A stretch of DNA of 32,000 nucleotides, from NCBI RefSeq assembly GCF_000981785.2, contig NZ_CP011304.1, positions 630,001 through 662,000 on the forward strand, written 5' to 3'. Position 1 is the stretch's first letter, and each line of letters starts with the position of its first letter. This DNA comes from Microcystis aeruginosa NIES-2549 (GTDB taxonomy: Bacteria; Cyanobacteriota; Cyanobacteriia; Cyanobacteriales; Microcystaceae). Below are positions 2,289 through 25,211 of this stretch, piece by piece. The notes under the pieces were generated by a model, which was not told where the DNA came from, made no database searches, and was given only the letters and a program-made list of their open reading frames with translations. Both the position numbers and the translations under genes were made by a program.

Positions 2289-3371
2289 ATGACCACCACT
2301 CTACAACAGCGCGAGAGCGCTTCCCTGTGGGAGCAGTTCTGTCAGTGGATCACCAGCACCAACAACCGTCTTTATGTCGGTTGGTTCGGTGTCATCATGA
2401 TCCCCACCCTGCTCACCGCCACCACCTGCTTCATCATCGCCTTTATCGCCGCTCCTCCCGTAGATATCGACGGTATCCGCGAGCCTGTAGCTGGTTCTCT
2501 ACTCTACGGAAACAACATCATCTCTGGTGCAGTTGTTCCCTCTTCTAACGCGATTGGACTCCACTTTTACCCCATCTGGGAAGCTGCTTCCTTAGATGAG
2601 TGGTTATACAACGGTGGTCCCTACCAGTTAGTCATTTTCCACTTCTTACTAGGTGTCTTCTGCTACCTCGGTCGTCAGTGGGAACTGTCTTTCCGTTTAG
2701 GAATGCGTCCTTGGATCTGTGTAGCTTACTCTGCACCTGTATCCGCCGCTACTGCTGTATTCTTAATCTATCCCATCGGACAAGGTTCTTTCTCTGATGG
2801 TATGCCTTTAGGAATCTCTGGAACCTTCAACTTTATGTTCGTGTTCCAAGCAGAACATAACATTCTGATGCACCCCTTCCATATGTTAGGTGTTGCTGGT
2901 GTGTTCGGCGGTTCTCTGTTCTCCGCGATGCACGGTTCCCTAGTAACTTCTTCTTTAGTGCGTGAAACCACTGAAATCGAATCTCAGAACTACGGTTACA
3001 AATTCGGTCAAGAGGAAGAAACCTACAATATCGTTGCCGCTCACGGTTACTTCGGACGTTTAATCTTCCAATACGCTTCTTTCAACAACAGCCGCTCCCT
3101 GCACTTCTTCTTAGGTGCTTGGCCGGTAATCGGTATCTGGTTTACGGCAATGGGTGTTAGCACCATGGCGTTTAACCTCAACGGTTTCAACTTCAACCAG
3201 TCGATTCTCGATTCTCAAGGTCGTGTAATCGGTACTTGGGCCGATGTGTTAAACCGCGCTGGTATCGGTATGGAAGTAATGCACGAGCGTAATGCACACA
3301 ACTTCCCCTTAGACTTGGCTAGTGGTGAACAGGCTCCCGTAGCTCTGACCGCTCCCGCTATCAATGGTTAA
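2289..3371 (+). CDS. psbA: photosystem II D1 protein, copy 1
   Basis: 360-aa [38 protein letters not shown]..., unmistakably D1. Gln at position 130. CtpA processing site ...NFPLDLA(344)/[16 protein letters not shown]. Confidence 0.98.
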
Positions 3372-3460: not shown

Positions 3461-3676
3461 ATGATCAGTTTAGAACAAGCTTTAAATACTGTTGAGCAAC
3501 TATCTTTAGAACAACAGGAAATGTTATTAGAAATTTTACAAAATCGTTTACTTGATATTCGTCGTCAAGAAATTGCTAGGGATGCTAGGGAGTCAATTAA
3601 TGCTTTTCATCAAAGAGAATTTAAACCTCAACCCCTAGAAATTGTTCTGAGAGAATTGAGAGAAACTTTAGAATAG
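3461..3676 (+). CDS. putative type II antitoxin (partner of the truncated RelE/YafQ-like toxin)
   Basis: 71-aa helical, acidic ORF 5 nt upstream of a toxin-like ORF. Same size and position as the second pair at 4085-4294. Confidence 0.5.
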   Translation: MISLEQALNTVEQLSLEQQEMLLEILQNRLLDIRRQEIARDARESINAFHQREFKPQPLEIVLRELRETLE

Positions 3677-3681
3677 ATATT

Positions 3682-3897
3682 ATGAGAGAACTGGTTTTAA
3701 CGCCTAAATTTAAGCGGACTTTCCGTAAGTTTGTTCTCAGAAATCCTCAACGACAGAAAGCGATTGAGAAAACATTGGCACAAATGAGGGAAGATATTTA
3801 TTTTTTGAACTTGGGAACTCATTCATTAAAAGGGGAATTATCGGGACTTAAAGCTTGTTCTTGTGGTTATGATTGTCGGATTATTTGGCTCTCTTAG
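3682..3897 (+). pseudogene. RelE/YafQ-family toxin, C-terminally truncated
   Basis: 71 aa aligning with the intact 95-aa paralog at 4297-4584 (KFKRTFRKF/ FKRSFKKL; THSLKGELSGLKACSCGYDCRII / THKLSGNLEGLWSCTVAYDCRII). It stops right after CRIIWLS and so lacks about 25 C-terminal residues. Confidence 0.55.
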
Positions 3898-4084: not shown

Positions 4085-4294
4085 ATGATGACTTTGCAAG
4101 AAATGATCAAATCTTTTGAGAATTTATCAGAGGATGAACAGGAGTCATTGTTAGAGATTTTGTGTCAATATAGAGCTAAAGCAAGAGAAAGAGAAATTTT
4201 AGCTAATTTTAAGGAATTGAAAGATGCGATCGCTACTGGAACGGCCAGAAGGGGAACCGTAGAAGATTTGATTGCTGATTTGAATGAGGATTAA
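4085..4294 (+). CDS. putative type II antitoxin
   Basis: 69-aa ORF whose stop lies 2 nt before the toxin ATG. Small and charged, typical antitoxin position. Confidence 0.6.
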   Translation: MMTLQEMIKSFENLSEDEQESLLEILCQYRAKAREREILANFKELKDAIATGTARRGTVEDLIADLNED

Positions 4295-4296
4295 CA

Positions 4297-4584
4297 ATGG
4301 AGCTAATATGGAGTGATGGGTTTAAGCGTTCGTTTAAGAAGCTAATCAAGAAAAATCCCCAGTTAAAACCTAAAATTTTCGATGTACTTAGAAAACTGGC
4401 AGAAGACCCATTTACACTGTCTTTAAAAACCCATAAGTTAAGTGGTAATTTAGAAGGGTTATGGTCTTGTACTGTAGCTTACGATTGTCGAATTATTTTT
4501 AGTTTTTCGGAAGATGGAGAATATTTAGAAGTTATCATCTTGTTAATTGATATTGGTAGTCACGATCAGGTGTATAGAAAATAG
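4297..4584 (+). CDS. RelE/YafQ (ParE superfamily) type II toxin
   Basis: 95-aa ORF with the family pattern F.RSFKKL...P....KTHKLSGNLEGLWSC.V.YDCRIIF... Confidence 0.7.
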   Translation: MELIWSDGFKRSFKKLIKKNPQLKPKIFDVLRKLAEDPFTLSLKTHKLSGNLEGLWSCTVAYDCRIIFSFSEDGEYLEVIILLIDIGSHDQVYRK

Positions 4585-4656: not shown

Positions 4657-6021
4657 CTAATCGTTAGGATTTCTTTGAAGATAGGATTTAAACACAGGAT
4701 TAATAGGAAAATAGGACGAGGTTTCTGATGGTAATTTATCCAGTAAACAGCGTCTCATTAATGACTGAATAGTTGCCCAAAATTCAGAAGTAGATAAGTC
4801 AAGATTAGCAGTTTTGGGAAACTTTTCTACCGCTTCAGTTTGATTAGCTAACCAGTGCATCACCTTTTTTTCTGTTGCGGATAAACGCTGTAAATGACAT
4901 TCGATCGAGTCTTCTATATCTCCTAAATAAATTTCATTTTTCATTTGTTCTAAAAATAAGGATACTTCTCCATCAAATAGTTCAATAAGGGTTGAGGAGA
5001 TGATATTTAACCAGTTAGGATGACCTTGATAAAGTTCGCTCAGTTTCGTCCATTTCTCCTCACTTTTTAAACCGTATTCTTTGAAGATTTCTTCAAATTC
5101 TGTTGTTAAACCTTGCAGGTATAAAGTTTTAATTTTATCGGATTTTAAGGTGACAAAATCTCTGGGAAGTTCCCAACTAATTAAAATTAAACAACTTTGA
5201 TGAGATGTGGTAGCAATTTGCTGAAAAAATTTATGATAATCCTGACAGTCGCTTAAATATTTACCTGCTAATTCCCCCAGTTTAAAAATATTCTGTACAT
5301 CATCAAGAATAATTAAACAACGATAGGAGCTTAGATAATCTATTATATCGGGTAAGGGGGTTGATAGAGATTGGCTGAAAAACTGTTTTAGATTATCTTT
5401 GAGAGCAATTAATTGAGGAATATTTTCCAGGCTGCGATAAATAATATAATCAAATTGTGAGGCAATTTCTGAAATTAATTTAAGGGTTAAAGCTGTTTTT
5501 CCAATTCCACTTAACCCATAAATAGTAATTAATCGAGTTTTATTATCTAGCCATTCTTTTAAGGTGGATAGTTCTAACTTACGTCCATAGTTATACCTTA
5601 ATTCAGGAGCTTTTGTTAAGTCAATCATGGGAGATTTATTATTATGTAAAGAATATGATCGGTTTTGGTTATCATTAGTCGTTTGAATAATTTGACCACC
5701 AATATTGATGTTATCAATTTGTAACAAACAATTCCCCGAATGATAAGCTTGAGAAACCCGATATTTTCTTTCTAACTTGGATCGTAAATTATCTTTATTA
5801 ACATCTTCGTCTAATACCTTACCCAACTTTTTCCATAAGTTAGCAGCCTCTTTTTTAATATGAGATTCACTACAACCATTAAAAGATTGAGCAATTTGCC
5901 AATATTTTTGACCTTGCCAAACCCCTGTCAAGATTGCTTCTTGTACTGGTGTCAGATGAGACTCCACTTTCTCAAACATTAAATCATCAACATATTGCAA
6001 AACTTGGTCAATATTATTCAT
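4657..6021 (-). CDS. STAND NTPase: N-terminal LuxR/GerE-like HTH + NB-ARC (AP-ATPase) core, no C-terminal repeat sensor
   Basis: HTH-like LTPVQEAILTGVWQGQKYWQIAQSFNGCSESHIKKEAANLWKKLG. Walker A GLSGIGKTAL, Walker B CLIILDDVQ, then LILISWE and GHPNWL (GxP-like) motifs. Only 454 aa, with no WD40/TPR/LRR region. Confidence 0.8.
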   Translation of the reverse strand: MNNIDQVLQYVDDLMFEKVESHLTPVQEAILTGVWQGQKYWQIAQSFNGCSESHIKKEAANLWKKLGKVLDEDVNKDNLRSKLERKYRVSQAYHSGNCLLQIDNINIGGQIIQTTNDNQNRSYSLHNNKSPMIDLTKAPELRYNYGRKLELSTLKEWLDNKTRLITIYGLSGIGKTALTLKLISEIASQFDYIIYRSLENIPQLIALKDNLKQFFSQSLSTPLPDIIDYLSSYRCLIILDDVQNIFKLGELAGKYLSDCQDYHKFFQQIATTSHQSCLILISWELPRDFVTLKSDKIKTLYLQGLTTEFEEIFKEYGLKSEEKWTKLSELYQGHPNWLNIISSTLIELFDGEVSLFLEQMKNEIYLGDIEDSIECHLQRLSATEKKVMHWLANQTEAVEKFPKTANLDLSTSEFWATIQSLMRRCLLDKLPSETSSYFPINPVFKSYLQRNPND

Positions 6022-6269
6022 TTCTGGTTAAAAAATTAGAGGGGTAATCAAATATATTATACCAAACGGAACTAAGACTGTACCGTAACCTACCTATAAA
6101 TTGTGTACCAAAGCCTACTTTTGTACTAAAATCAAGCGCTACAATACTGAGATGTTAGGTAAATCAAGCTAATTAGTCCTATTTGCTTGCTAGATTGTCA
6201 TCATAGCCCATTTTGCGGTGACATGATCATCTTTTCCCTTTCAAAAATCAATGAAGTAATCTTTAAGTT

Positions 6270-7070
6270 ATGTATCAAGAACTACTGAGTAGCGCCAAGC
6301 CTGGATTTATCCTGATTATGATTGATCAGTCAGCTTCAATGTCAGATAAATACGCCAATTCAAATAAAGCAGATTTTGCCGCATTAGCCGTTAATCGAGT
6401 CATCGGAGAAATTATTACAGCTTGTTCATCGGGTAATGAGATTAAAGACAGATGTTTTGTGGCGGCGGTTGGCTATGGAGCAGGTATTAATGTACTATTT
6501 CTAGATAAAGCCTCAGAGTTGGCTAAAAATCCCAATACAACAACCCTTAAGAGAAAAGTCTCTGATGGTGCAGGTGGGTTGGTTGAAGTGGATGAAGTAA
6601 TGCGAGTGTTTGTGAAACCGACTGCAAGTAATGGAACACCAATGGCTGAAGCCTTTAAACAGGCTTATAATGGGGTAGAAAAATTTATTTCTAATCATCC
6701 CGATAGCTTTCCACCCGTTGTTATTAATATAACCGATGGAGAACCTAATGATTTTAATGCTGCTACTACTGAAGCGAAAAAACTAGCACAACTTAAAACA
6801 AGTGACGGTAACGTGATTGTTTTGAATGCTCATATTTCTAACGCATCAGCAGGGAAAATAGAGTTACCTAGTGACAATGCTGGTTTTAACAATAATAAAT
6901 TTGCTAACTTTTTGTTTGATATTTCCAGTGTGCTTCCTGATCCTCTTGCTGAGAGTGCCAAAAATGCGGGTTTTAATGTTCAACCTAATGCCAGAGGTTT
7001 TATCTTTAATGCTGATGCTGAAGCACTGATTAAACTTCTTCAATTTGGTTCTCAAGGAGCATTACGCTAA
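6270..7070 (+). CDS. von Willebrand factor A (TerY-like vWA) protein
   Basis: 266 aa with MIDAS residues in order: ILIMIDQSASMS (DxSxS), NGTPM (Thr) and INITDGEP (Asp). Size and layout are like TerY-type stand-alone vWA proteins. Confidence 0.85.
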   Translation: MYQELLSSAKPGFILIMIDQSASMSDKYANSNKADFAALAVNRVIGEIITACSSGNEIKDRCFVAAVGYGAGINVLFLDKASELAKNPNTTTLKRKVSDGAGGLVEVDEVMRVFVKPTASNGTPMAEAFKQAYNGVEKFISNHPDSFPPVVINITDGEPNDFNAATTEAKKLAQLKTSDGNVIVLNAHISNASAGKIELPSDNAGFNNNKFANFLFDISSVLPDPLAESAKNAGFNVQPNARGFIFNADAEALIKLLQFGSQGALR

Positions 7071-7075
7071 AGTTA

Positions 7076-8713
7076 TTGTCATTAATTATGGAATCTCATC
7101 ATAAAGTTTCAGTCATCCGTCGGTTCAGTGATAGAACTCATAAAGAGATGGAAACCATTAGCGGTTGTCAAGATAATTTTAGCTATAATGAAGCTAAGAA
7201 TTGTTTTGCGATCGCCGATGGTGCAACTCAATCATTTTACTCAAGTATATGGTCAAAACTTCTTGTTGATTATTTTTGTGAAAATCCCCAGATTGATAAA
7301 AACAATTGGCAAGAATGGCTTGAACTAATTCAGCAAAAATGGTTAGAAGAAGTTAGAGCAGAATTAGAAAAAGCAAAAAGCGGTAATAATTTTGCCTGGA
7401 TTGAGATTTACAATGGTTTGGAACGTTCTAAATCAGCAACATCTACCTTTATTGGGTTACAATTTATTGAAAATCAAGCAAAAATCTCAATTGTTGGCGA
7501 TAGCTGTCTGTTTATTTTTCAGGGAAATCAATTAATTCAAACCTATTTATTGAAAAAATCAACGAATTTTAATGATAGACCTGGATATTTTGGAAGTCGC
7601 TCTAAAAATAATGATGATTATGAGCCAGAGTTTTTAGACATCGAATTAAAATACAAACAACATTCAGATAAGCTTTATTTTGTACTAGCAACTGACGCTC
7701 TAGCTGAATATATTTTTAAATATACAGAACAGCAAAGAGATATTTTAACAACTTTACTTACCATTAATTCAGAACAGGAGTTTGAGAATTTTGTAAAATC
7801 TGCTAGACATAATGGCACAATAAAAATGAAAAATGATGATGTCACTTTAATGATTTTAGAAGTCAGTGATCGTGAAATCGTCAGTTTGCCTACACAAACC
7901 AGAAAAGAAAATCAAAAAAATACTCCTATCATTTCACCTTTAAGTTATGAAACTGAACAGCCTTCTAAAGAAGATCAAAACAATTCTTCAAGCGTAGAAA
8001 AAGAACCTAAAGACAATACTCCTGCTGAAAATTTAGAAGATACTTCTGGTTTTGCCAAAATAAGCTCCAATCTACAAACATTATTAAAATTTCTGCCATC
8101 TTTACCCATGACGCACCGCAATTTGAGAGGAGTTTCTTCTTCAAGTCCTCAACTGAGAGAAGACAAACCACCCGTAATTAAAGGAATAGATGGAATCCGT
8201 AATCTTCTCCTTGTTTTTATTCCTTTAAATATATTCTTAACTATACTCTCCACTGCGACCATATTATATTTTATTTCTCAGACAGCTAACAAAATAAATA
8301 GTATAAAAACTGAACAATCAAGCAATTCAAATTCATCTAGTCAAGTCACTAAATATGAACCTAAATATATGAACCTTGAAAAAGGAAATAAAATCTACAA
8401 AGATCAAACTTTTCAAGAAATTATTATTCCTGCTTTATCTGACTCATCTCAGGTTTTAATTTTAGAAGAAGGAGACAAATGGATTAAATTTCAGATTGAT
8501 CTTTATGCTAATCAAGCAATCTTGAATCAATGTTCTACTTGTGCAAGGGATGAAATAGAAATAAAACCCAAGACAAATCTGAGAACTTTGGCTAGTGAAT
8601 CAGAAAGGGATGTTTTTGGACAATTAAGCGAACCATCAAAGTTTAAAAAACTTGAATTTGATTCCCTTCCCAATTGGTCTAAATTTACATTTGTGGGGTA
8701 TGTAAAAAAATGA
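7076..8713 (+). CDS. PP2C-family (PP2C_2-like) Ser/Thr phosphatase with TM helix and C-terminal SH3b-like region
   Basis: N-terminal ~270 aa carry FAIADGATQS, IVGDSCLF, LATDALAEY and NDDVTLMILEV motifs. These are followed by a low-complexity linker, a predicted TM helix (LLLVFIPLNIFLTILSTATILYFI, about 8200-8280) and a ~145-aa beta-rich tail. The track start at 7076 is TTG; the ATG at 7088 (MESHHK) is more likely. Confidence 0.8.
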   Translation: MSLIMESHHKVSVIRRFSDRTHKEMETISGCQDNFSYNEAKNCFAIADGATQSFYSSIWSKLLVDYFCENPQIDKNNWQEWLELIQQKWLEEVRAELEKAKSGNNFAWIEIYNGLERSKSATSTFIGLQFIENQAKISIVGDSCLFIFQGNQLIQTYLLKKSTNFNDRPGYFGSRSKNNDDYEPEFLDIELKYKQHSDKLYFVLATDALAEYIFKYTEQQRDILTTLLTINSEQEFENFVKSARHNGTIKMKNDDVTLMILEVSDREIVSLPTQTRKENQKNTPIISPLSYETEQPSKEDQNNSSSVEKEPKDNTPAENLEDTSGFAKISSNLQTLLKFLPSLPMTHRNLRGVSSSSPQLREDKPPVIKGIDGIRNLLLVFIPLNIFLTILSTATILYFISQTANKINSIKTEQSSNSNSSSQVTKYEPKYMNLEKGNKIYKDQTFQEIIIPALSDSSQVLILEEGDKWIKFQIDLYANQAILNQCSTCARDEIEIKPKTNLRTLASESERDVFGQLSEPSKFKKLEFDSLPNWSKFTFVGYVKK

Positions 8714-10041
8714 AATATCCGCTTAGAACTGACTATGAAACAGTCGTAAAATACCCTGATAGATTTATATACGATGGTATTTTACAACAAGGAAAGCCTG
8801 TTAAGCAAAAGCAAAATCAGAACTTTTTACTGTCTCATAATGGCGGAAAAGCCGTTGTTTATGAAATTCAAACTAATCCTAAAAAATATGCCCTTAAATG
8901 TTGGATAGAAGATTTAGGGGATCTAAAAATTCGTTATAAGGCGATTGATGCCTATCTTAAAACAGTTCAACTTCCTTATTTTGTTGATTTTGCTTACCAA
9001 GAACAAGGAATTTTAGTCAATGGACAAAGATTTCCCATTATTAGAATGGAATGGGTTGATGGTATTAGCTTTAAAGACTTTATATCTAGTAATATTAATA
9101 ACCCGACTTCTATCCGTAACTTTGCCGAAAAATTCTTAGAAATGGTTAAAATTCTTCATCAAAATAATATTTCTCATGGAGACTTACAACACGGTAATAT
9201 TATAGTGCGTAAAAATGGTGATCTATGTTTAATTGACTATGATAGTTTATATGTTCCTCAATTAAGCAACGCAACCGACAATATTAAAGGACTCCCTGGT
9301 TATCAACATCCTAACAGAAATAAGTTATCTAAATTAAGTCCAAAAGCTGACTATTTCTCAGAAATGGTAATTTATTTATCATTGCTTGTTTTATCAGAAA
9401 ATCCCAACTATTGGCAACAAATACAACAAGAAGAAAGGCTACTATTTTCCGAAAAAGACCTAATTAAACCTAATTCATCCAAGATTTTCAAAGAACTTAA
9501 AAATCTTTCTCCTGAGATTGTGTATTTTACCCAAGAATTAGAGAAATTTTGTCAACAATCAAATATTGAAAACCTACAAACTCTTGAAAATTTAGTCAAC
9601 AATTACACAGGAGTTAAATGGAGTTTTGTGCCTCCTACTAACCCTATTCCAATCGTTACTTCACCTGTTCCTGTAGTTAATAATCCTACTAATTGGGGTT
9701 TTACATCTAATAATTCTACTCCATCCCCATACCCTCCTCCCTCAAGTCAAGGATGGACTTTCTCCCCTAACGGAGTTCAAACTCAAACCAGTCCAAAAAA
9801 TACAACATCTTCAGATCCCTGGACAAAACTTGAAACCAATTCATCAAGTGCTTGGGATAAATTTGACACGGGTAAAACACCACCTCCAACAGATTGGGAT
9901 AAACTCCATCAACAACCTCGAAAAGAAGCACCAGTACCTATTCCAGATGAAAACATTTGGGATAAATTTGATAATATTTGGAAGAAACTTACAACATCTG
10001 TATCATCTATTTGGAACAAAATTTTGAACTGGTTTAATTAG
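8710..10041 (+). CDS. protein-kinase-like (Ser/Thr kinase fold) protein with Pro-rich, Trp-repeat C-terminal tail
   Basis: Kinase hallmarks: YALKCW (beta3 Lys), catalytic loop HGDLQHGNIIV and DFG-equivalent LIDYDSL. The ATG overlaps the phosphatase stop (ATGA at 8710-8713). The last ~140 aa are low complexity. Confidence 0.8.
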   Translation: MKYPLRTDYETVVKYPDRFIYDGILQQGKPVKQKQNQNFLLSHNGGKAVVYEIQTNPKKYALKCWIEDLGDLKIRYKAIDAYLKTVQLPYFVDFAYQEQGILVNGQRFPIIRMEWVDGISFKDFISSNINNPTSIRNFAEKFLEMVKILHQNNISHGDLQHGNIIVRKNGDLCLIDYDSLYVPQLSNATDNIKGLPGYQHPNRNKLSKLSPKADYFSEMVIYLSLLVLSENPNYWQQIQQEERLLFSEKDLIKPNSSKIFKELKNLSPEIVYFTQELEKFCQQSNIENLQTLENLVNNYTGVKWSFVPPTNPIPIVTSPVPVVNNPTNWGFTSNNSTPSPYPPPSSQGWTFSPNGVQTQTSPKNTTSSDPWTKLETNSSSAWDKFDTGKTPPPTDWDKLHQQPRKEAPVPIPDENIWDKFDNIWKKLTTSVSSIWNKILNWFN

Positions 10042-10067
10042 CTATCTGATTATTCTGTGCAGTTCTC

Positions 10068-10490
10068 CTATCCTAAAATCAACTCCATTGCTTGATTAAT
10101 AATTCGATTTTTATCAACCATAGCTTCAATTTCTTCGGGTTTATATATACCTTCAAAAGCTTCTAATGCCCCTTGTCTTAAAGCCGAAGAATAAGCATCA
10201 TCTAAGGTTTCTTTTAATTCTTCTATTGTTAGATAATTTCCTCCAGTTTTACGTCGTTTATTAATGCGTTGAATCTGTCTAACAGAATTAGAAATAGAGG
10301 TTTCCCATGAGCGGGTACTGCGTTTTTCTGCTTGCTGTTTAATCAGATGTAATAGAACAATAATACTAAAGCTAAAAATCTTATTGAGCTTATCATCCTT
10401 GCTCATTTCTGTCATTTCCTCTACCAGGAGCAAGGCATCGGGAATATTTCCTACCAAAAGTAAATCCTTTAATTCTAACAATTCTTCCAT
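10068..10490 (-). CDS. DUF29-like helical protein
   Basis: 140 aa. The segment EMTEMSKDDKLNKIFSFSIIVLLHLIKQQAEKRSTRSWETSISNSVRQI follows the DUF29 pattern (E.G...R......L.VLL.HLLKW.YQP..RS.SW..TI...R). Family recalled from memory. Confidence 0.5.
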   Translation of the reverse strand: MEELLELKDLLLVGNIPDALLLVEEMTEMSKDDKLNKIFSFSIIVLLHLIKQQAEKRSTRSWETSISNSVRQIQRINKRRKTGGNYLTIEELKETLDDAYSSALRQGALEAFEGIYKPEEIEAMVDKNRIINQAMELILG

Positions 10491-10544: not shown

Positions 10545-11483
10545 TTATTCAGAGATGAATCGTCTGATTAAATCTTCCCGTGAAGACTCCAATAATAAAC
10601 GACTAGACTCCATCGGTGATAACTTAAGCAACTCATCAATGACTTTTATTAAAGACTCATCCAATTCTCCAAACCTCACTTGCATTAAATTTTCAATAAT
10701 TTGTCGTTGTCCTTGTTGAAGTCCTTGTTGAAGTCCTTCTTGTTTGGTCGCCTCTTTCCACTCTAAATAAGATTGAGATAAAGCCATAAATACCTCCCTA
10801 TCTTCTGATTCTAAAAGATTGTTAACTTCAACACTCACACGCCAACTAATCAATAATTCCATGACATTTTGACGGAAGGAATCGCCGGAAGGCAACTCAA
10901 GCAACTCTCTTACCGCCTGGCTTTGGGTTTTCCCCCGTCCCAACAATCTTAACAGTAAAGTGTCTGGGGTAATAGGTAACTGATTAATCGCTATAATTGC
11001 CGTTCGGTGAGAAGGAGATAAAAAATAAATCCCTTCTGTCCAGTTTTCCAGTTCTAACTTAGCATCAAAACTCTCTAGTATCTGGAAACTAATAGAAGTA
11101 GCCAAAATCCATAATCTAGGTAAGTCATCCTCATTTAACTCAGTTTTTTCCCGTTTCCCTTTCCGTTGAAGTTCAGCAAAAATCGAAAACAGTTTTAAGA
11201 TACAGTTGCGAATTTCCGTTCGATTGGGAGCATTGCGAAAAGGCTCAAGCAAAGTGCTTGTGGTCACCATTTGCCCTAAAAGACCCAAAAATTGAGCATT
11301 TCCCCGCATATTAGAGTCAGGAGAGAAGAAAACATCCACCTGACGGGTTTCATCCGCCACTTCCTTGCTAACTTCCACCCTTCCCAGAGGAGACAGCAAT
11401 TCTTCTAGGTATTGTTTGGCAAATTGATCGTGAGGTTGTCGAGTCATATCTTCAATCTTAGACCAGAAAAGACCCAACCGCAC
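10545..11483 (-). CDS. PD-(D/E)XK / Rpn(YhgA)-related putative nuclease with DUF4351-like C-terminus
   Basis: N-terminus ...MTRQPHDQFAKQYLEELLSPLGRVEVSKEVADETRQVDVFFSP...LLEPFRNAP matches an abundant cyanobacterial family annotated this way. The track start at 11483 is GTG; the ATG at 11447 (MTRQPHDQ) is the likely start. Confidence 0.55.
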   Translation of the reverse strand: MRLGLFWSKIEDMTRQPHDQFAKQYLEELLSPLGRVEVSKEVADETRQVDVFFSPDSNMRGNAQFLGLLGQMVTTSTLLEPFRNAPNRTEIRNCILKLFSIFAELQRKGKREKTELNEDDLPRLWILATSISFQILESFDAKLELENWTEGIYFLSPSHRTAIIAINQLPITPDTLLLRLLGRGKTQSQAVRELLELPSGDSFRQNVMELLISWRVSVEVNNLLESEDREVFMALSQSYLEWKEATKQEGLQQGLQQGQRQIIENLMQVRFGELDESLIKVIDELLKLSPMESSRLLLESSREDLIRRFISE

Positions 11484-11542
11484 CCGACCCGTTTCATAAC
11501 GTCAGCTTATCAATGGCATAAGTAACAATATCGTCAAACCCC

Positions 11543-11571
11543 TTTACAAACCGATACAAACTCTCTAAGAT
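11543..11571 (+). promoter_or_regulatory. psbA copy 2 promoter with HLR1-type repeat (second half-site degenerate)
   Basis: TTTACAAA-CC-GATACAAA (11543-11560; GTTACA in copy 1 is GATACA here), then TAAGAT as the -10 at 11566-11571. Confidence 0.55.
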
Positions 11572-11624
11572 AGAGACATCATCAATCAATCGTACCTCGA
11601 TAACTTAATAGGAATCATAAACCA

Positions 11625-12707
11625 ATGACCACCACTCTACAACAGCGCGAGAGCGCTTCCCTGTGGGAGCAGTTCTGCCAGTGGATCACCAGCACCAACA
11701 ACCGTCTTTATGTCGGCTGGTTCGGTGTGATCATGATCCCCACCCTGCTCACCGCCACCACCTGCTTCATCATCGCCTTTATCGCCGCTCCTCCTGTAGA
11801 TATCGACGGTATCCGCGAGCCTGTAGCTGGTTCTCTACTCTACGGAAACAACATCATCTCTGGTGCGGTTGTTCCCTCTTCCAACGCGATTGGACTCCAC
11901 TTCTACCCCATCTGGGAAGCTGCTTCCTTAGATGAGTGGTTATACAACGGTGGTCCCTACCAGTTAGTCATTTTCCATTTCTTACTAGGTGTCTTCTGCT
12001 ACCTCGGTCGTCAGTGGGAACTGTCTTTCCGTTTAGGAATGCGTCCTTGGATCTGTGTGGCTTACTCTGCACCTGTATCCGCCGCTACTGCTGTATTCTT
12101 AATCTATCCCATCGGACAAGGTTCTTTCTCTGATGGTATGCCTTTAGGAATCTCTGGAACCTTCAACTTTATGTTCGTGTTCCAAGCAGAACATAACATT
12201 CTGATGCACCCCTTCCATATGTTAGGTGTGGCTGGTGTGTTCGGCGGTTCTCTGTTCTCCGCGATGCACGGTTCGTTAGTAACTTCTTCCTTAGTGCGTG
12301 AAACCACTGAAATCGAATCTCAGAACTACGGTTACAAATTCGGTCAAGAGGAAGAAACCTACAATATCGTTGCCGCTCACGGTTACTTCGGACGTTTAAT
12401 CTTCCAATACGCTTCTTTCAACAATAGCCGCTCTCTGCACTTCTTCTTAGGTGCTTGGCCGGTAATCGGTATCTGGTTTACGGCAATGGGTGTTAGCACC
12501 ATGGCGTTCAACCTCAACGGTTTCAACTTCAACCAGTCGATTCTCGATTCTCAAGGTCGTGTAATCGGTACTTGGGCCGATGTGTTAAACCGCGCTGGTA
12601 TCGGTATGGAAGTAATGCACGAGCGCAACGCTCACAACTTCCCCTTAGACTTAGCTAGTGGTGAACAGGCTCCCGTAGCTCTGATTGCTCCCTCTATCAA
12701 TGGTTAA
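11625..12707 (+). CDS. psbA: photosystem II D1 protein, copy 2
   Basis: 360-aa ORF identical to copy 1 through residue 353. It differs only at T354I and A357S, both inside the CtpA-cleaved C-terminal extension. Confidence 0.98.
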
Positions 12708-14205: not shown

Positions 14206-14415
14206 CTAATCGTTAGTATTTCTTTTAAGATAGGATTTAAACACAAGATTAATTGGAAAATAGGACGAGGTTTCTGATTGTAATTTATCCAGTAAACAGC
14301 GTCTCATCAACGACTGAATAGTTGCCCAAAATTCAGAAGTATATAAGTCAAGATTAGCAGTTTTGGGAAACTTTTCTGCTGATTTCTTTACCCTCTGATT
14401 GTACTTGATTGTCAT
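14206..14415 (-). pseudogene. 3'-terminal relic of a second copy of the HTH/NB-ARC STAND gene
   Basis: 14206-14377 aligns base for base (172 nt, a handful of mismatches) with 4657-4828. The encoded EKFPKTANLDLYTSEFWATIQSLMRRCLLDKLQSETSSYFPINLVFKSYLKRNTND matches the last 56 aa of the 454-aa protein with 5 differences. Upstream of 14377 homology is lost, and the remaining ORF residues are unrelated. Confidence 0.75.
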
Positions 14416-14495: not shown

Positions 14496-16733
14496 TCACT
14501 GATTACTGTTGACTAACTCCTGCTTAATCACTCTAGAATTTTGATAGGCAAGGGGTAAAGTAAACCAAAATTGTGAGCCAACCCGCGGGGTACTTTTTAC
14601 CCCAATTCTGCCGGAGTGAGCCTCGATAATTTGACGACATTGGTAGGAACCTAAACCAATTCCCGTTAGGTGTTGATTATGAAGATTTCTTACATATAAA
14701 TGGAAAAGATGTTGACATTGTTCCTCATCCATGCCAATGCCATTATCGCTTAAAGTGCAGTAGAGCATATCTTGGTCAATACGAGCATCTAAAGCTAATT
14801 GAATCGGTGAAGGATTATGTTTTAAGGCATTATTTAATAATTGTTCAAAAACACTTCTTAGCTGACAAGGATCGGCATCAATAGCGGGTAAGTTATCGGG
14901 GAGAAGATTAATAAAAGTAGCTTGATATAAATCAAAATCTTTTTGCCAATCTTTGAGCCAAATTTCCACCTGTTCTTTTAAAGATAGAGGTTGACGATGT
15001 AAGATTAAAGGTCGTTCTTCAGCAAAATGATTTTCCGATAAAGCATTAATTAAAGTTAGTTGTCGATCGCAACTACGCACCACCTGATCGAGCATTGCTC
15101 GTGAGATAGTTACTTTTTCTGTTTGCCGACACTGTAAATTTTTTAATAACATCACTAATCCCATAATCGAAGTGCGAAGATCGTGGGATACTGCCTGCAA
15201 AAAAACCGTTTTCATTTCGTATAAACGCTGAATTTCCCAGACTTTTTCCCGCAGTTCCATGGTTCTGGCTGCCACTTCCCGTTCTAAATTATTATTCAAG
15301 CTTTGCACCCTCTGATATAGTTGCGCTTGGCCGATAGCGATACAAACTTGGGTGGCTAACTGTTCTAATAATTTGACCTCGCTTTTTTGCCAATGACGGG
15401 GATGGGAATATTGATGGACAACTAAAGCACCTAAATGTTGATTATTAACCGTTAGAGGTAAAACTAAAGAGGATTTAACTTGCAGGTATTCGTAATAACC
15501 CTTGAGAGTGGGCAGAGTTTGCACCTTAGCGGTATTATCGGCAATAATTAACTTATCTAAAGAAAATAATTGTCCCAATTCTTCCAGTAATTCTGGTTCG
15601 GGAAACCAACCCATCAGCGAGGGAATCTGGGGACGACGGGACTCGGCGATTACCTTAGACCAACCCCCTTCTTGACAGTGGCCGATATAGACTTGATCGG
15701 CATCGAGAAAATTTCTGATTTCCTCAACAATGGTATTCAAAACTTGATCTATATCTAAAGATTGATGGACTTTTAAAGCAACTTGTGTTAGTAAATGTTC
15801 TCGTTCTAAAGTTTCATTTAAAGCTCGATCGATCTGTTGTCTTTCGCTAATCGCCGCCGATAAAAACAGAGAAGTTGACATGACAATGACTAAAAAGATT
15901 TGTAAGATCAGGACACCTCTGGTATAATCGGGAGCCTGTAGGATAAAAGGGCTGATTCCCCCAGCCAATCCCATCAAAGCTAAAATAGATACTAAAAAAT
16001 TGGCTATTACCGCTCCCCAGGTCTGAAAACGCATAGCAGCCCAAACCACAAAGGGAAAAGGGAGATATTCGAGGTACTGCACCATACTCCAATCGGGGTT
16101 AAGAAAATTCTGTTGACCACCAAAAACCACGGAAGTCACCACCGTTAGCAAACTCAGACAAAGTAAGGCCTCGCCAAGGCGTTGGGGTTGCTGGGGTTCC
16201 CGCAGAGAGTGACGATGGAAGCAAAAACGCAACAGCAGCGGCGTGGTCATTAAGATCCCCGTACTATCTCCGAGCCAGATAATGCCCCAAGACTGTCCAA
16301 ATTGCCGCCAATCCCAAGTATTTAGCCAACTACGGGCAAAAGTATCGATAGTGGCATTAACTGCCGAGGCCAATAAGGCCGCTAAAAATACCAGTAAAAG
16401 GATATCGCGAATGCGCTGTAAAGTGGCGGAAAATCTCAGATAATGCAAGAATTGCGCCCCTAACAGGGCCGATAAACTGCTGCCGAGTGCTGAAAATAGA
16501 GCTATGGGCCAACTAGCCCCTAAAAAGAAGGTAAGAAGCAAATCCCCGATAAAAACGCCTAAAACTAGCCTTTTTCCCCCTAAAAAAACAGCAGTCAAGC
16601 CAATACCGGCACTCATCCAAATTGGGGCAGGTCGCGACCCTAAATTTAAGCAGAGATAGCCTAGCCAACCAACACCCAGATAAACTAGGGCAACAAGCAC
16701 AATTTTAGAGCGATCTGATGAAATCCGTAGCAT
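14496..16733 (-). CDS. sensor histidine kinase (multi-pass membrane MASE1-like N-terminus, GAF, HisKA, HATPase_c)
   Basis: 745 aa. About 300 aa of hydrophobic helices, then a GAF-like region (DIDQVLNTIVEEIRNFLDADQVYI...), H-box AVSHDLRTS, N-box LLNNALKHN, and G-boxes SDNGIGM and GIGLGS. Confidence 0.9.
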   Translation of the reverse strand: MLRISSDRSKIVLVALVYLGVGWLGYLCLNLGSRPAPIWMSAGIGLTAVFLGGKRLVLGVFIGDLLLTFFLGASWPIALFSALGSSLSALLGAQFLHYLRFSATLQRIRDILLLVFLAALLASAVNATIDTFARSWLNTWDWRQFGQSWGIIWLGDSTGILMTTPLLLRFCFHRHSLREPQQPQRLGEALLCLSLLTVVTSVVFGGQQNFLNPDWSMVQYLEYLPFPFVVWAAMRFQTWGAVIANFLVSILALMGLAGGISPFILQAPDYTRGVLILQIFLVIVMSTSLFLSAAISERQQIDRALNETLEREHLLTQVALKVHQSLDIDQVLNTIVEEIRNFLDADQVYIGHCQEGGWSKVIAESRRPQIPSLMGWFPEPELLEELGQLFSLDKLIIADNTAKVQTLPTLKGYYEYLQVKSSLVLPLTVNNQHLGALVVHQYSHPRHWQKSEVKLLEQLATQVCIAIGQAQLYQRVQSLNNNLEREVAARTMELREKVWEIQRLYEMKTVFLQAVSHDLRTSIMGLVMLLKNLQCRQTEKVTISRAMLDQVVRSCDRQLTLINALSENHFAEERPLILHRQPLSLKEQVEIWLKDWQKDFDLYQATFINLLPDNLPAIDADPCQLRSVFEQLLNNALKHNPSPIQLALDARIDQDMLYCTLSDNGIGMDEEQCQHLFHLYVRNLHNQHLTGIGLGSYQCRQIIEAHSGRIGVKSTPRVGSQFWFTLPLAYQNSRVIKQELVNSNQ

Positions 16734-16736
16734 TTT

Positions 16737-16785
16737 CAGTTATCAGTTATCAGTTATCAGTTATCAGTTATCAGTTATCAGTTAT
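16737..16785. repeat. heptanucleotide tandem repeat (CAGTTAT)x7
   Basis: Seven perfect units starting 4 nt from the kinase start codon (16731-16733 on the minus strand). On the minus strand they read ATAACTG repeats. Confidence 0.95.
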
Positions 16786-16820
16786 TAGGTTTAAGTTTTA
16801 AGTTATTAGGTTTAAGTTTT
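16780..16820. repeat. 2 x 20-nt direct repeat AGTTATTAGGTTTAAGTTTT
   Basis: Units at 16780-16799 and 16801-16820, separated by one A and followed by TTTTCAATTTTCAA. Confidence 0.85.
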
Positions 16821-16847
16821 CAATTTTCAATAAATTTAGTATCTTTT

Positions 16848-24616: not shown

Positions 24617-24723
24617 TTAACCTCAGTTCGGGTTAAGGCTATTTTCTTACTCATTCCACAAAAGAATAGGGTTTACAGCGAACGAGAAAATTAGGGTTTT
24701 AGCTTATCCCGAACTCAGGTTAA
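24617..24723. mobile_element. MITE-like element, copy A (~107 bp)
   Basis: Terminal inverted repeats TTAACCTCAGTTCGGGTTAAGGCT (24617-24640) and AGCTTATCCCGAACTCAGGTTAA (24701-23). A third, solo copy of the terminus (TTAACCTGAGTTCGGGATAA) lies at 24590-24609. No coding capacity. Confidence 0.55.
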
Positions 24724-24777
24724 CTACTTATAAACCCCAGAGGCGGTAAACAGTAAACAGTGACCAATCACTAACCA

Positions 24778-24797
24778 CTGATAACTGATAACTGATA
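24778..24797. repeat. (CTGATAA) heptamer array, ~2.9 units
   Basis: CTGATAA-CTGATAA-CTGATA. Same heptamer (reverse complement, phase-shifted) as at 16737-16785. Confidence 0.9.
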
Positions 24798-25016: not shown

Positions 25017-25123
25017 CTAACCTCAGTTCCAGTTAAGGCTATTTTCTTACTCATTCCACAAAAGAATAGGGTTTACAGCGAACGAGAAAATTAGGGTTTT
25101 AGCTTATCCCGAACTCAGGTTAA
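25017..25123. mobile_element. MITE-like element, copy B
   Basis: Near-identical to copy A, offset by exactly 400 nt. The left terminus has GG to CA (TAACCTCAGTTCCAGTTAAGGCT); the right terminus is at 25101-25123. Confidence 0.55.
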
Positions 25124-25177
25124 CTACTTATAAACCCCAGAGGCGGTAAACAGTAAACAGTGACCAATCACTAACCA

Positions 25178-25211
25178 CTGATAACTGATAACTGATAACT
25201 GATAACTGATA
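25178..25211. repeat. (CTGATAA) heptamer array, ~4.9 units
   Basis: Four full units plus CTGATA. The flanks are identical to the 24778 array, which has two fewer units. Confidence 0.9.

Follow-up and report, generated by a model that had tools for sequence, protein, structure and literature searches.

Do a STAND NTPase gene and the vWA-PP2C-kinase operon transcribed away from it form one four-gene conflict system, or is the former the regulator of a known defence triad? This question is raised by a region of Microcystis aeruginosa NIES-2549, examined here within a 32,000-nucleotide stretch of DNA (the window, to which all coordinates refer). The four ORFs of the original prediction were all found, one on the minus strand (4657-6021) and three on the plus strand (6270-7070, 7076 or 7088-8713, and 8710-10041); the 248 bp gap between the STAND and TerY genes and the overlap of the phosphatase stop with the kinase ATG at 8710-8713 are present, and the motifs quoted for the STAND, vWA and kinase proteins can be read in the translations. 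The main domain calls were confirmed, and the overall interpretation was partly supported.

The vWA-PP2C-kinase operon

The first gene of the operon (6270..7070, plus strand) encodes a TerY-like stand-alone vWA protein of 266 aa, the PADLOC TerY match of which (6e-58) covers profile positions 3-273 of 277. DQSAS, GT and TDG are present in the translation; the MIDAS is complete, and its residues D19, S21, S23, T123 and D156 do not vary among 16 homologues. The second gene encodes a PP2C phosphatase (PADLOC PP2C, 1.2e-35; Pfam PP2C_2, 23.7 bits against a cut-off of 24), which is 541 aa long from the ATG at 7088 (7088..8713, plus strand) and 545 aa from the TTG at 7076; the 541-aa form is found in databases, 100% identical in several Microcystis strains. 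The third product is a Ser/Thr kinase of 443 aa (8710..10041, plus strand; PADLOC STK_OB, 1.4e-64; Pfam Pkinase, 2.2e-14), with HGDLQHGN and DYD in the translation and a kinase domain at approximately 1-300. For the vWA, PP2C and kinase assignments Pfam support was weak or moderate, whereas PADLOC support was strong. The gene order TerY-PP2C-STK, present as one operon in the window, was kept in nearly all of 80 metagenome loci. Judged from the sequence, the operon at 6270-10041 clearly reads as a TerY-P triad, as had been proposed, and as a cyanobacterial variant of it.

The TerY-P triad was reportedly described by Anantharaman, Iyer and Aravind in 2012. Such triads also attach to NTPase-centred conflict systems, namely CoCoNuT McrB-type GTPases and GAP1-N2 GTPases. 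The standing of TerY-P as an experimentally supported anti-phage system, part of the original prediction, agrees with PMC11090510 and PMC7699616, in which anti-phage activity is attributed to Gao et al. 2020 and protection against T7-like phages is described for other representatives expressed in E. coli.

In the phosphatase, a PP2C domain (approximately 1-265) and a low-complexity linker are followed by one TM helix (approximately 383-410) and, after an S/N-rich linker, by an all-beta domain of about 115 aa at the C-terminus (8360..8710, plus strand; AF2 pLDDT 89.8), which is presumably extracytoplasmic and which, in an orthologue alignment, is conserved and contains CxxC. The TM helix bears out the predicted membrane anchor. 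The "SH3b-like modules" also attributed to this protein found no support: there is a single all-beta domain, which Pfam SH3_3 matches at E=0.013 and in two of seven orthologues, and for which Foldseek gave no significant match (best E 0.046 in the PDB and 0.088 in BFVD) and a sequence search of the PDB no match. The Trp-repeat tail of the kinase was found as predicted; it consists of W[DE]K[FL]D repeats of low complexity, ends in ...IWNKILNWFN and is kept in cyanobacterial orthologues. The STK_OB match is limited to profile positions 1-296 of 562, and neither an OB fold nor a zinc ribbon was seen in the tail by PADLOC profile coverage and orthologue alignment.

The STAND protein and the repeats upstream of its gene

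The divergent gene (4657..6021, minus strand) encodes a 454-aa HTH_VMAP-M9/NB-ARC STAND NTPase, as indicated by Pfam, motifs and homologues. The NB-ARC core stood up to scrutiny, with a Pfam match of 28.0 bits against a cut-off of 23.5 and with Walker A (GLSGIGKT), Walker B (CLIILDDV) and GHP motifs in the translation; ATPase_2 (33.5 bits, cut-off 33.2) and AAA_14 were also above their Pfam cut-offs. The Pfam GerE match reached 22.5 bits with a cut-off of 23.5 (E=8.5e-5), a weak GerE match was seen in the Geminocystis homologue, and PF26355 HTH_VMAP-M9 is assigned in homologues by precomputed Pfam. A profile search against PDB sequences yielded the plant NLRs Sr35 and ZAR1 and the archaeal PH0952, the plant NLRs being the best matches (3e-5).

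The protein is laid out as a five-helix HTH (1-90), a disordered S/T/N-rich linker (approximately 93-151) and an NBD-helical-winged-helix part (approximately 141-454). The HTH (codons 1-90, 5752..6021, minus strand), in which the AF2 model and a subfamily comparison point to CSESHIKKEAANLWKKL as the putative recognition helix, is the sole confident domain of the AF2 model, with five helices and a pLDDT of 73-92. The NTPase part was modelled poorly (pLDDT about 40-60); its secondary-structure order is consistent with NB-ARC, in a model of low confidence, and with this same model Foldseek also matched ORC, Cdc6 and DnaA. A repeat sensor domain was absent by Pfam and in the sequence, the protein ending after the winged helix, and about 455 aa is the usual length in the family, in keeping with the original description of a STAND protein devoid of a sensor array. 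BTAD, Trans_reg_C and TPR gave no Pfam matches, an N-terminal effector domain was not found, and PADLOC returned zero matches, none to its defence STAND or Avs models. The protein also carries no sensor domain that would explain what the switch reads.

In the intergenic region, direct repeats that are phased but degenerate form a putative operator array at 6054..6148 (minus strand), recognized from a consensus match, the density of RGTA and the homologous arrays present upstream of STAND genes in other loci. Its RGTA cores lie at 6148, 6127, 6119, 6109, 6094, 6084 and 6063, and its best repeat unit is AGTAGGCTTTGGTAC at 6105-6119. The family consensus AGTAGGATTTGGTAC has a single match in the 32 kb window, with 1 mismatch, and this falls between the STAND and TerY genes; at 7 per 110 nt, the RGTA cores of the array are the maximum of the window on either strand (mean 0.7). 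TRF reported no array in the window itself, where the array is degenerate and has one good unit, and detected a 10-nt array of 4.7 copies in the STAND locus L016. An 8-mer repeated at least 4 times within 150 nt was found in 57 of 87 STAND upstream regions versus 25 of 434 control regions, with repeat spacings upstream of STAND genes of mostly 10, 20, 29 and 39 nt. Phased 10-nt direct repeats are present upstream of most STAND-family genes and differ in sequence by subfamily, each recognition-helix type pairing with its own repeat motif in a nearly diagonal helix-by-motif table; this correspondence was set post hoc on phylogenetic clades, so that common ancestry of the upstream regions accounts for part of it.

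The putative array overlaps the STAND promoter and, on the TerY side, the -35 position. Between the STAND and TerY genes, a consensus two-hexamer scan detected no complete sigma-70 promoter. Inspection of the sequence pointed to a putative extended -10 of the STAND promoter, TGGTATAAT (6056..6064, minus strand), and to a putative -10 of the TerY-P operon, TACAAT (6140..6145, plus strand), which would be followed by a leader of approximately 118 nt. TACAAT or TATAAT occurs at the aligned position in the window, in Dolichospermum L010, in Geminocystis L163 and in L087, and ACAAT in Richelia L165. Upstream of the putative TerY -10 there is no -35 consensus; a repeat unit occupies that position, as it does upstream of the conserved -10 in L010 and L087. 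The product of 4657..6021 is predicted to be a cluster-situated transcription regulator.

Association of the STAND gene with the triad and with other cargo

The STAND gene lies divergently upstream of six of nine distinct cyanobacterial-type triads (Microcystis, Dolichospermum L010, Geminocystis L163, L087, L089 and L167), the cyanobacterial triads of L091, L092 and Richelia L165 having none. The divergent gaps measure 157-262 bp, except in L087, which has a duplicated promoter and a gap of 952 bp; the six linked triads bear four different HTH and repeat types. The predicted adjacency therefore holds among cyanobacterial-type triads, but it does not extend further: none of the non-cyanobacterial triads among the 80 metagenome TerY-P loci adjoins the STAND family, and a full triad is found in one of 80 STAND-family genome loci, a TerY remnant alone occurring in a second. 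In M. aeruginosa NIES-3806 the STAND gene is a frameshifted pseudogene and the triad is intact, so regulation cannot be obligatory; in L167, degradation affects STAND gene and triad alike.

The STAND family is very large, all of its named matches are cyanobacterial, and some homologues are labelled "DnaC" by JGI. The nearest upstream gene is divergent in 61 of 75 STAND-family genome loci (median gap 233 bp), and the divergent partners comprise at least 25 distinct families, including FG-GAP/M23 proteins, a C39 peptidase with an OMP, an MvdD ATP-grasp with a peptide, rSAM/SPASM enzymes, ABC transporters, glycine-rich TM proteins and TerY-P. Many of these cargoes are secreted or membrane proteins or RiPP enzymes, not classic defence genes. 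In most loci the repeats are closer to the STAND gene than to the cargo; synteny of STAND with psbA is widespread regardless of cargo and spans orders, the loci being chromosomal. The "type B" STAND alleles of Microcystis have no obvious array and no divergent cargo. Because there are at least 25 other kinds of cargo, because non-cyanobacterial triads lack the STAND gene and one STAND-family locus in 80 has the triad, and because of the NIES-3806 pseudogene, the STAND protein appears to belong to a family of modular regulators and not to be an immune sensor specific to the triad; on the same grounds, the term "four-gene conflict system" overstates the link.

In the window, the genes sit in a low-GC island (31-37% GC at 4-11 kb versus 43-49% in the flanks), and a Pfam/HMM search of the window ORFs found genes for YafQ/RelE-type toxins, PIN, Uma2 and DUF29 among the neighbours, matching the AT-rich island with toxin-antitoxin modules that had been described. 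The left boundary of the island is psbA copy 1 (2289..3371, plus strand), convergent with the STAND gene, and the right boundary is psbA copy 2 (11625..12707, plus strand), both identified by translation; a 300-nt direct repeat at the two copies (2197-2496 versus 11533-11832) is 98% identical. This psbA-flanked layout is also found in other Microcystis strains, among which the region differs in toxin-antitoxin modules and duplications. A remnant of a second STAND gene, consisting of 69 codons of the 3' end only (14206..14415, minus strand), was recognized by a direct repeat (4657-4835 and 14206-14384, 94% identical) and by an HMM match covering profile positions 399-457; it sits downstream of psbA copy 2, Uma2 and a PIN toxin-antitoxin pair.

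Presence and absence among related strains, a point that the original prediction had proposed to check, could be read from a blastn comparison of the window with the Microcystis loci L003-L008, in which the triad is missing: homology ends at 5645 and restarts at 10074, and outside this segment the window DNA is 91-96% identical to the triad-less strains. The segment (5646..10073) takes in STAND codons 1-125 (HTH and linker), the intergenic putative operator and the TerY-P operon. HTH, intergenic DNA and triad together behave in Microcystis as a single exchangeable cassette, or recombination block.

A two-layer model, its rivals and its known relatives

The explanation in which we place slightly better than even confidence is a two-layer one, combining the known TerY-P defence triad with a cluster-situated MalT/AfsR-like regulator. 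The STAND protein would most likely be a dedicated, ATP-switched transcription regulator of the triad and not an immune sensor of a new kind; control of the divergent operon by a nucleotide switch had been among the roles originally suggested, and the comparative data favour this reading. In the first layer, the operon at 6270-10041 would act as a TerY-P variant with both enzymes apparently attached to the membrane; the all-beta domain of the phosphatase, extracytoplasmic in this view, could report on the envelope, and a Trp-rich, amphipathic tail would replace the OB fold of the kinase. Kinase and phosphatase would determine how far a target is phosphorylated, cytoplasmic TerY (vWA/MIDAS) serving as adaptor or substrate, and infection or perturbation of the envelope would tip the balance between them, presumably to anti-phage effect in Microcystis. 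In the second layer, the N-terminal HTH of the STAND protein would bind the phased direct repeats at approximately 6054-6148, and nucleotide-dependent oligomerisation of the NB-ARC part on this array, prompted by a sensed signal, would activate or repress the STAND promoter and the -35-less TerY-P promoter, much as MalT acts on MalT boxes and AfsR/SARP on 11-nt direct repeats.

One alternative scenario is an integrated four-gene immune system, with the STAND protein as infection sensor or switch and post-translational partner of the triad and with DNA binding as a secondary matter; the kinase and phosphatase could, for example, control STAND oligomerisation via the S/T-rich linker, or STAND oligomers could provide a scaffold for TerY. 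We regard it as distinctly unlikely. The divergent adjacency does recur in at least five cyanobacterial lineages, the disordered linker at 93-151 could be a kinase substrate, the STAND gene and triad of L167 are degraded jointly, and triads elsewhere join NTPase-centred systems such as those of the CoCoNuT McrB-type and GAP1-N2 GTPases; however, the genes are divergent and not co-operonic, the STAND protein has neither effector nor sensor domain and neither PADLOC nor Avs match, triads stand alone elsewhere, and the unrelated cargoes of the family, the rarity of the full triad among its loci and the pseudogene beside an intact triad in NIES-3806 all speak against it. That the genes adjoin by chance in a hot spot of insertion, the STAND protein regulating itself or something elsewhere with no tie to the triad, seems fairly unlikely to us. 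Such a coincidence would fit the strain-to-strain variability and low GC of the psbA-flanked region, the cargo-independent STAND-psbA synteny and the position of the repeats nearer to the STAND gene, but the same divergent geometry is seen with orthologous triads in different genera, outside the Microcystis island context and with four STAND/operator types among them, the -35 position of TerY coincides with a repeat unit, and HTH, operator and triad are inherited as a single block. Chance adjacency in six of nine triads would moreover be very unlikely, at about 0.2% per event by our own estimate for a genome with few STAND copies.

A further scenario leaves the STAND protein as regulator and concerns the triad, which might be a membrane stress or signalling switch (Ter-type, sensing metal or the envelope) and not an anti-phage system; this we consider somewhat unlikely. 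A metal-sensing phospho-switch was the original comparative-genomics proposal for TerY-P, this kinase, unlike the tested defence kinases, has no OB fold, the phosphatase bears a presumably extracytoplasmic domain, and many other STAND cargoes are secreted, membrane or RiPP proteins; on the other hand, the PADLOC TerY-P matches are strong for all three proteins, and defence genes typically sit in islands such as this one, low in GC, rich in toxin-antitoxin modules and variable between strains. It is very improbable that the HTH-NTPase is an initiator of the ORC/DnaA/IstB type or a mobile-element protein, with iteron-like repeats serving replication or transposition of the island. The Foldseek matches to ORC, Cdc6 and DnaA come from the low-confidence model, and the "DnaC" labels and the iteron-like look of the phased repeats adjoining the STAND gene are set against sequence profiles that favour NB-ARC (Pfam, and plant NLRs as best PDB sequence matches), chromosomal loci syntenic with psbA across orders, repeats that overlap promoter elements, and a lack of transposase, integrase or ori features beside the STAND gene.

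Returning to the regulated-triad model, the operon resembles known TerY-P systems in its stand-alone vWA protein with MIDAS, PP2C and Ser/Thr kinase, encoded in the same order by co-directional, tightly packed or overlapping genes. It departs from the tested ones in a kinase with a Trp-repeat tail instead of a C-terminal OB fold, from the CoCoNuT-linked ones in the lack of a zinc ribbon in the kinase, and from the usual ones in a phosphatase that is approximately twice as long and bears a TM helix and a presumably extracytoplasmic beta domain; unlike other TerY-P triads, most cyanobacterial examples have a divergent HTH-NB-ARC gene attached.

The MalT/LAL and AfsR/SARP regulators combine a DNA-binding domain with an oligomerising STAND NTPase, and their genes adjoin the clusters that they control; the targets of MalT and AfsR are short direct-repeat arrays, phased at about one helical turn, that overlap the -35 of activator-dependent promoters. 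The STAND protein likewise appears to join a DNA-binding HTH to a STAND NTPase and, as in AfsR, the DNA-binding domain is N-terminal and NB-ARC follows. Unlike the C-terminal LuxR HTH of MalT, its HTH is of the HTH_VMAP-M9 class and at best distantly GerE/sigma-r4-like; it has no OmpR-type wHTH and BTAD, in contrast to SARP regulators, and differs from both groups in being half the size and in having no TPR or other sensor. Fusions of an r4-type HTH to NB-ARC, WD40 or TPR_MalT in cyanobacterial genomes were listed in a survey (PMC11119718), which is a catalogue only and proposes no function, operator or gene-neighbourhood analysis; a paper on the MalT domain is among its references.

With Avs/AVAST the protein shares a STAND NTPase core and a location in a defence-type island; instead of an N-terminal effector, a C-terminal repeat sensor and a PADLOC match, it has an HTH and putative cognate DNA repeats. 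CapW/BrxR-type wHTH-WYL proteins are transcriptional regulators attached to defence systems, and CvkR is reportedly the regulator of a type V-K CAST. The gene studied here, predicted to encode a regulator, is similarly placed beside, and like many of them divergent from, a mobile defence or conflict cassette; it differs from CapW/BrxR and CvkR in belonging to another protein family, in its NB-ARC ATPase switch and in the many non-defence cargoes of its relatives.

A cyanobacterial form of the TerY-P triad

The four open reading frames (ORFs) of the cassette were translated, and their predicted coordinates proved exact: a STAND protein of 454 aa on the minus strand (4657-6021) and, across a gap of 248 bp, a plus-strand operon encoding the vWA protein TerY (6270-7070, 266 aa), a PP2C phosphatase (from an ATG at 7088 or a TTG at 7076 to 8713; 541 or 545 aa) and a kinase (8710-10041, 443 aa) whose ATG overlaps the phosphatase stop. 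All motifs quoted from these proteins in the original prediction were readable in the translations. An NCBIfam search of all four returned no informative family. Pfam supported the vWA, PP2C and kinase assignments weakly to moderately; the strong support came from PADLOC, whose models bore out the identification of the operon as TerY-P (TerY, 6e-58; PP2C, 1.2e-35; STK_OB, 1.4e-64).

When an alignment of TerY homologues, in which the MIDAS residues are invariant, was scanned against metagenome contigs, 80 loci were recovered, and wherever these were long enough the genes stood in the order TerY, PP2C, kinase. TerY-P was defined via comparative genomics (PMC11090510), and its OB-fold-kinase version protected E. 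coli from T7-like phages (PMC11090510, PMC7699616); the triad as such is therefore already known. As judged from sequence, the triad studied here is a TerY-P member by all features tested, the C-terminal domain of the kinase excepted. The kinase matched only positions 1-296 of the 562 in the STK_OB profile; its tail is composed of W[DE]K[FL]D repeats, ends in IWNKILNWFN and is conserved in cyanobacterial orthologues. The phosphatase is twice as long as usual: its PP2C domain is joined by a low-complexity linker to one hydrophobic helix, from which a second linker leads to a conserved C-terminal domain of ~115 aa with a CxxC pair. AlphaFold2 (AF2) modelled this last domain as all-beta (pLDDT 89.8). 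The SH3b-like modules originally assigned to the phosphatase found no support there, since Foldseek returned no significant relative (best E 0.046 in the PDB and 0.088 in BFVD, a library of predicted viral-protein structures), a PDB sequence search gave no match, and Pfam SH3_3 reached E=0.013 in 2 of 7 orthologues. A homologue search with the phosphatase retrieved near-identical Microcystis sequences only. In two more distant triads (L097 and L098) the kinase ends in a TM segment, which would fit action close to the membrane in this part of the family.

The putative TerY leader (~118 nt; 6146-6269, plus strand), aligned with those of loci L010, L087 and L165, contains the partly conserved blocks AAGTAAATnAGCnTAAT and ATTTGCTT, which are also kept in the Richelia locus (L165) that lacks a STAND gene. 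It could be a regulatory 5' UTR; an Rfam search of the window, this leader included, gave no match.

The cassette lies, as predicted, in an AT-rich island (31-37% GC at 4-11 kb vs 43-49% in the flanks) with toxin-antitoxin modules and nucleases around it, namely two YafQ/RelE-type pairs, a PIN pair, a Uma2 nuclease-like gene and a DUF29 gene. At the DNA level the window shares 98.3% identity with the NIES-3806 locus and so comes from a close relative of that strain, not from the strain itself. An exact-sequence look-up of the STAND protein gave no match; it shares 96% identity with its M. flos-aquae FACHB-1344 homologue, and the phosphatase is 100% identical in M. aeruginosa NIES-3806 and several other strains. 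Two flanking ORFs of 360 aa were considered as IS transposases and rejected, their translations being psbA; these two direct psbA copies (2289-3371 and 11625-12707) bracket the island and share a 300-nt repeat of 98% identity. A third unit, a 69-codon remnant of a STAND 3' end (14206-14415), lies beyond the second psbA copy, Uma2 and the PIN pair. The tandem YafQ/RelE-type pairs (3461-3897 and 4085-4584) separate psbA from the STAND gene; of their toxins, the first is probably decayed, as it is truncated to 71 aa and matches YafQ weakly (E=0.006). Other Microcystis strains carry at the same position either Uma2 and one toxin-antitoxin pair or a PIN pair. An ORF of 312 aa (10545-11483, minus strand), to which neither Pfam nor NCBIfam searches gave a match, is kept beside DUF29 in many Microcystis strains, and NIES-3806 has partial duplicates of its 3' end. 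Tandem (TTATCAG)n heptanucleotide arrays were seen at 16733-16830 and, as the reverse complement, at 24766-24797 and 25166-25211, thus forming inverted repeats ~8 kb apart, and a 180-nt direct repeat (24618-24797 and 25018-25197) is 99% identical.

The STAND gene next to triads and its inheritance

Two scans addressed the association of the STAND gene with the triad. On the STAND side, one genome per species was scanned, giving 80 loci, among which only Dolichospermum sp. ST_sed8 (L010) had the complete triad, likewise arranged divergently; a Microcystis MAG (L001) retained a TerY fragment only. On the triad side, cyanobacterial-type triads, defined by a TerY at least 67% identical, were compared where the flanks were long enough; the STAND gene was present in Microcystis (the window, L081-L083, L085, L086 and L170-L174), Dolichospermum (L010), L087, L089, Geminocystis (L163, truncated to 261 aa) and L167 (STAND gene split, PP2C gene interrupted by a transposase). 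It was absent beside L091, L092 and Richelia sinica L165, and was found with none of the non-cyanobacterial triads. Present with six, absent with three and with all non-cyanobacterial triads, the predicted link is thus real within cyanobacteria, where it recurs, but neither universal nor exclusive. A neighbour-joining tree built on residues 1-245 placed the triad-linked STAND proteins at three or more separate positions, and they represented four recognition-helix/repeat types; their TerY proteins are 73-80% identical to that of the window. The STAND-TerY spacer of L087 (819-1770) measures 952 bp because it contains a second copy of the STAND promoter, of its repeat arrays and of the first 12 codons; this extra coding stub reads MNIQELSQCTDE and then a stop.

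Comparison with Microcystis strains that lack the triad (L003-L008) showed 94-96% DNA identity from the psbA side up to 5645 (STAND codon 125), after which homology was lost, to return at 10074 in DUF29. The variable block therefore spans the HTH with its linker, the putative operator and the whole triad, and the NTPase-coding part is common to the window gene and to type B alleles, which have a different HTH. By identity, the HTH of the window comes nearest to its counterpart in the triad-linked gene of Dolichospermum (73% vs at most 67% for all non-linked genes). This fits acquisition of HTH, operator and cargo as a unit, with one putative crossover inside the conserved part of the gene, and such inheritance would be expected if HTH and operator are matched to each other. 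There is decay as well: L081 has a split kinase and an intact STAND gene, and in L167 both partners are damaged.

Repeat arrays and divergent partners of the STAND family

The STAND protein scored above the Pfam cut-offs for NB-ARC, ATPase_2 and AAA_14 and just below that for GerE; precomputed Pfam data place its N-terminal domain in PF26355 (HTH_VMAP-M9), a module first delineated in variable middle regions of vWA-MoxR-associated proteins (PMC7159879). With a profile of 14 homologues, the nearest solved sequences were the plant NLRs Sr35 and ZAR1 and the archaeal STAND protein PH0952. In the AF2 model only the N-terminal five-helix domain is confident (pLDDT 73-92); residues 93-151 form a disordered, S/T/N-rich linker, and the NTPase part of the full model, built on 14 sequences, is poor (pLDDT 53.8). 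The Foldseek ranking, in which NLRs, Apaf-1 and CED-4 are mixed with ORC, Cdc6 and DnaA (TM ~0.2-0.26), is for this reason a coarse guide. The family comprises 1,494 clusters (50% identity, E<=1e-30), and all hits with an organism name are cyanobacterial, except one MAG binned as Actinomycetota. The best 150 of these clusters are mostly 440-480 aa long and align end to end; the repeat-less form is therefore the family norm and not a truncation.

A nearest upstream ORF of at least 100 aa was identifiable in 75 of the 80 genome loci. It was divergent in 61 of them, at a median distance of 233 bp, with 42 divergent partners at 150-300 bp. The partner varies by locus and falls into at least 25 sequence clusters. 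Besides TerY-P, Pfam assignments included an FG-GAP/M23 peptidase protein, a C39 peptidase with an outer-membrane barrel and a small secreted protein, an MvdD-type ATP-grasp enzyme preceded by a gene for an 81-aa peptide, a radical-SAM/SPASM enzyme, an ABC transporter with small TM proteins, a GUN4-TM protein and several glycine-rich membrane proteins; against PADLOC these cargoes gave generic domain-level matches only. One conserved HTH-NTPase combined with many alternative divergent operons at promoter-sized spacing is a pattern characteristic of a cluster-situated transcription regulator.

Several partners deserve description in their own right. Microcoleus, Tychonema and Phormidium-like genomes have a STAND paralogue that is divergent from the 81-aa peptide gene and the MvdD-type ATP-grasp ligase, a graspetide-like RiPP cluster (L052, L056, L057, L061, L063, L064, L068, L070 and L072) that lies ~220-1650 bp upstream of the STAND start and has its own AGTGGG-type repeat array. 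The radical-SAM/SPASM enzyme is the partner in L071 and L080. The GUN4-domain protein, a divergent partner in some loci (for example L028, 8210-8947, minus strand; cluster c46), has a glycine-rich TM tail, and its GUN4 part matches the C-terminal region of the PADLOC PD-T4-6 kinase model (E=5e-27). Downstream, psbA is convergent with the STAND gene at a few hundred bp to ~5 kb in at least 20 of the 80 loci, across cyanobacterial orders; many other contigs stop 1-3 kb downstream of the STAND gene, as would be expected if assemblies break at multi-copy psbA.

Within 125 nt upstream, most STAND-family genes have direct repeats, either tandem or phased, whose units measure ~10 nt; in the largest subfamily these include TTTAGTAGGATTTGGTAC and TTGACAAAGTAGGATTTAGTAGGATATAGTAC. 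An 8-mer occurring at least four times within 150 nt, one mismatch allowed, was found in 57 of 87 upstream regions vs 25 of 434 control stretches of 150 nt drawn at random from these loci. Spacings were mainly 10, 19-20, 29 and 39 nt, and in L016 TRF reported a 10-nt period with 4.7 copies. The repeat sequence tracks the putative recognition helix by subfamily: helix SESH[IV]KKEA goes with repeat AGTAGGAT, YSYDH.K.EG with AGTGG[GC], RSEDHIKQV with AGTGT[GT]AT, RSKSH.KNI with AGTA[CT]GA, SEGH.RD with GTCGGAA and RSYDH.KKEAWKLWK with GTGGGA. The occurrence table of these motifs, which were picked by eye from the same data, is nearly diagonal. Ancestry contributes to this pattern, as the helix groups are also clades, but it does not account for the repetition inside each array.

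In the window itself the array is degenerate. Neither TRF nor a strict PWM detected an array in the STAND-TerY intergenic region, the PWM finding one good unit, whereas a looser RGTA-core density did: 7 cores per 110 nt on the STAND-sense strand at 6061-6170, the maximum of the whole window on either strand, where the mean is 0.7 and the 99.9th percentile 5.2. The good unit, AGTAGGCTTTGGTAC (6105-6119), is the only match in the 32 kb to the consensus from other genera, with 1 mismatch; we estimate ~0.003 chance matches at up to one mismatch. The array overlaps a putative extended -10 of the STAND gene, TGGTATAAT (6056-6064), and extends as far as the -35 position for a TACAAT element (6140-6145). 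This element precedes TerY and is conserved across the window, L010, L087, L163 and L165. A consensus -35 was seen at neither putative promoter, and a two-hexamer promoter scan found none in the intergenic region and fewer sites overall than in shuffled sequence. MalT boxes and SARP/AfsR direct repeats show the same array/promoter geometry, which suggests, by analogy, autoregulation together with control of the cargo promoter.

A candidate regulator and its relation to known systems

We lean towards the reading, the best supported one, that a defence triad of known type, here as a cyanobacterial variant tethered to the membrane, is controlled by an HTH/NB-ARC regulator dedicated to it; we are far more certain of the homology statements than of this reading. 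That the regulator binds DNA, in which direction it acts, what signal it reads and that the triad serves in defence are all matters that we infer. The STAND regulator probably binds the intergenic repeats, and the switch would be its nucleotide-dependent oligomerisation.

A separate question, a role of the triad in stress signalling rather than defence, is compatible with the regulator model; such a role is doubtful. That the STAND gene and the triad are coincidental neighbours in a hot spot appears unlikely; the island has toxin-antitoxin modules and varies between strains, and the divergent layout recurs in Dolichospermum. Somewhat less likely still is an integrated four-gene immune machine. 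The link recurs and L167 has both STAND gene and triad damaged; in NIES-3806 (L169, 4560-5934) the STAND gene is frameshifted, with no gene called there, and TerY, PP2C and kinase are intact and 98-100% identical to the window, making this strain a natural knock-out of the putative regulator. An iteron-binding STAND initiator is highly improbable; DnaA and ORC did appear in its Foldseek ranking, and the array overlaps a putative promoter. The finding is more modest than the novel four-gene conflict system first put forward, and it does bring with it a testable, potentially general regulatory principle.

More tentatively than the regulator reading of this locus, the family as a whole may be an unrecognised class of operator-specific, ATP-switched transcription factors with swappable HTH/operator/cargo cassettes. 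Each protein would be wired to its own divergent cargo (defence, RiPP biosynthesis, secreted peptidases or membrane toxins), the module would be swapped by recombination inside the conserved NTPase-coding part, TerY-P in Microcystis would be one plug-in, and the triad kinase and phosphatase might in turn act on the disordered linker of the regulator. What the data indicate is a very large uncharacterised NB-ARC family resembling cluster-situated regulators, with predicted operators readable straight from genomes. If true, this would help in predicting the regulation of natural-product, secretion and defence clusters in cyanobacteria, the bloom-former Microcystis included, and NB-ARC modules would act as transcription switches without a repeat sensor. 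TerY-P is among the least understood validated anti-phage systems, and a membrane-tethered variant with its own ATP-switched regulator would provide concrete handles for its study: how the operon is induced, to what the extracytoplasmic domain of the phosphatase responds, and whether expression is kept gated on account of the system's cost.

A limited literature search found no description of the TerY-P and STAND combination or of operators for this STAND family; a survey of cyanobacterial sigma-like proteins records r4-type HTH-NB-ARC architectures and proposes no function for them (PMC11119718). The STAND protein matched no PADLOC defence model and is not one of the Avs-type defence STAND proteins. 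It is proposed, by analogy, to work like the MalT/LAL and AfsR-type regulators, yet it is not a member of these groups, having another class of HTH, no TPR sensor and half their size.
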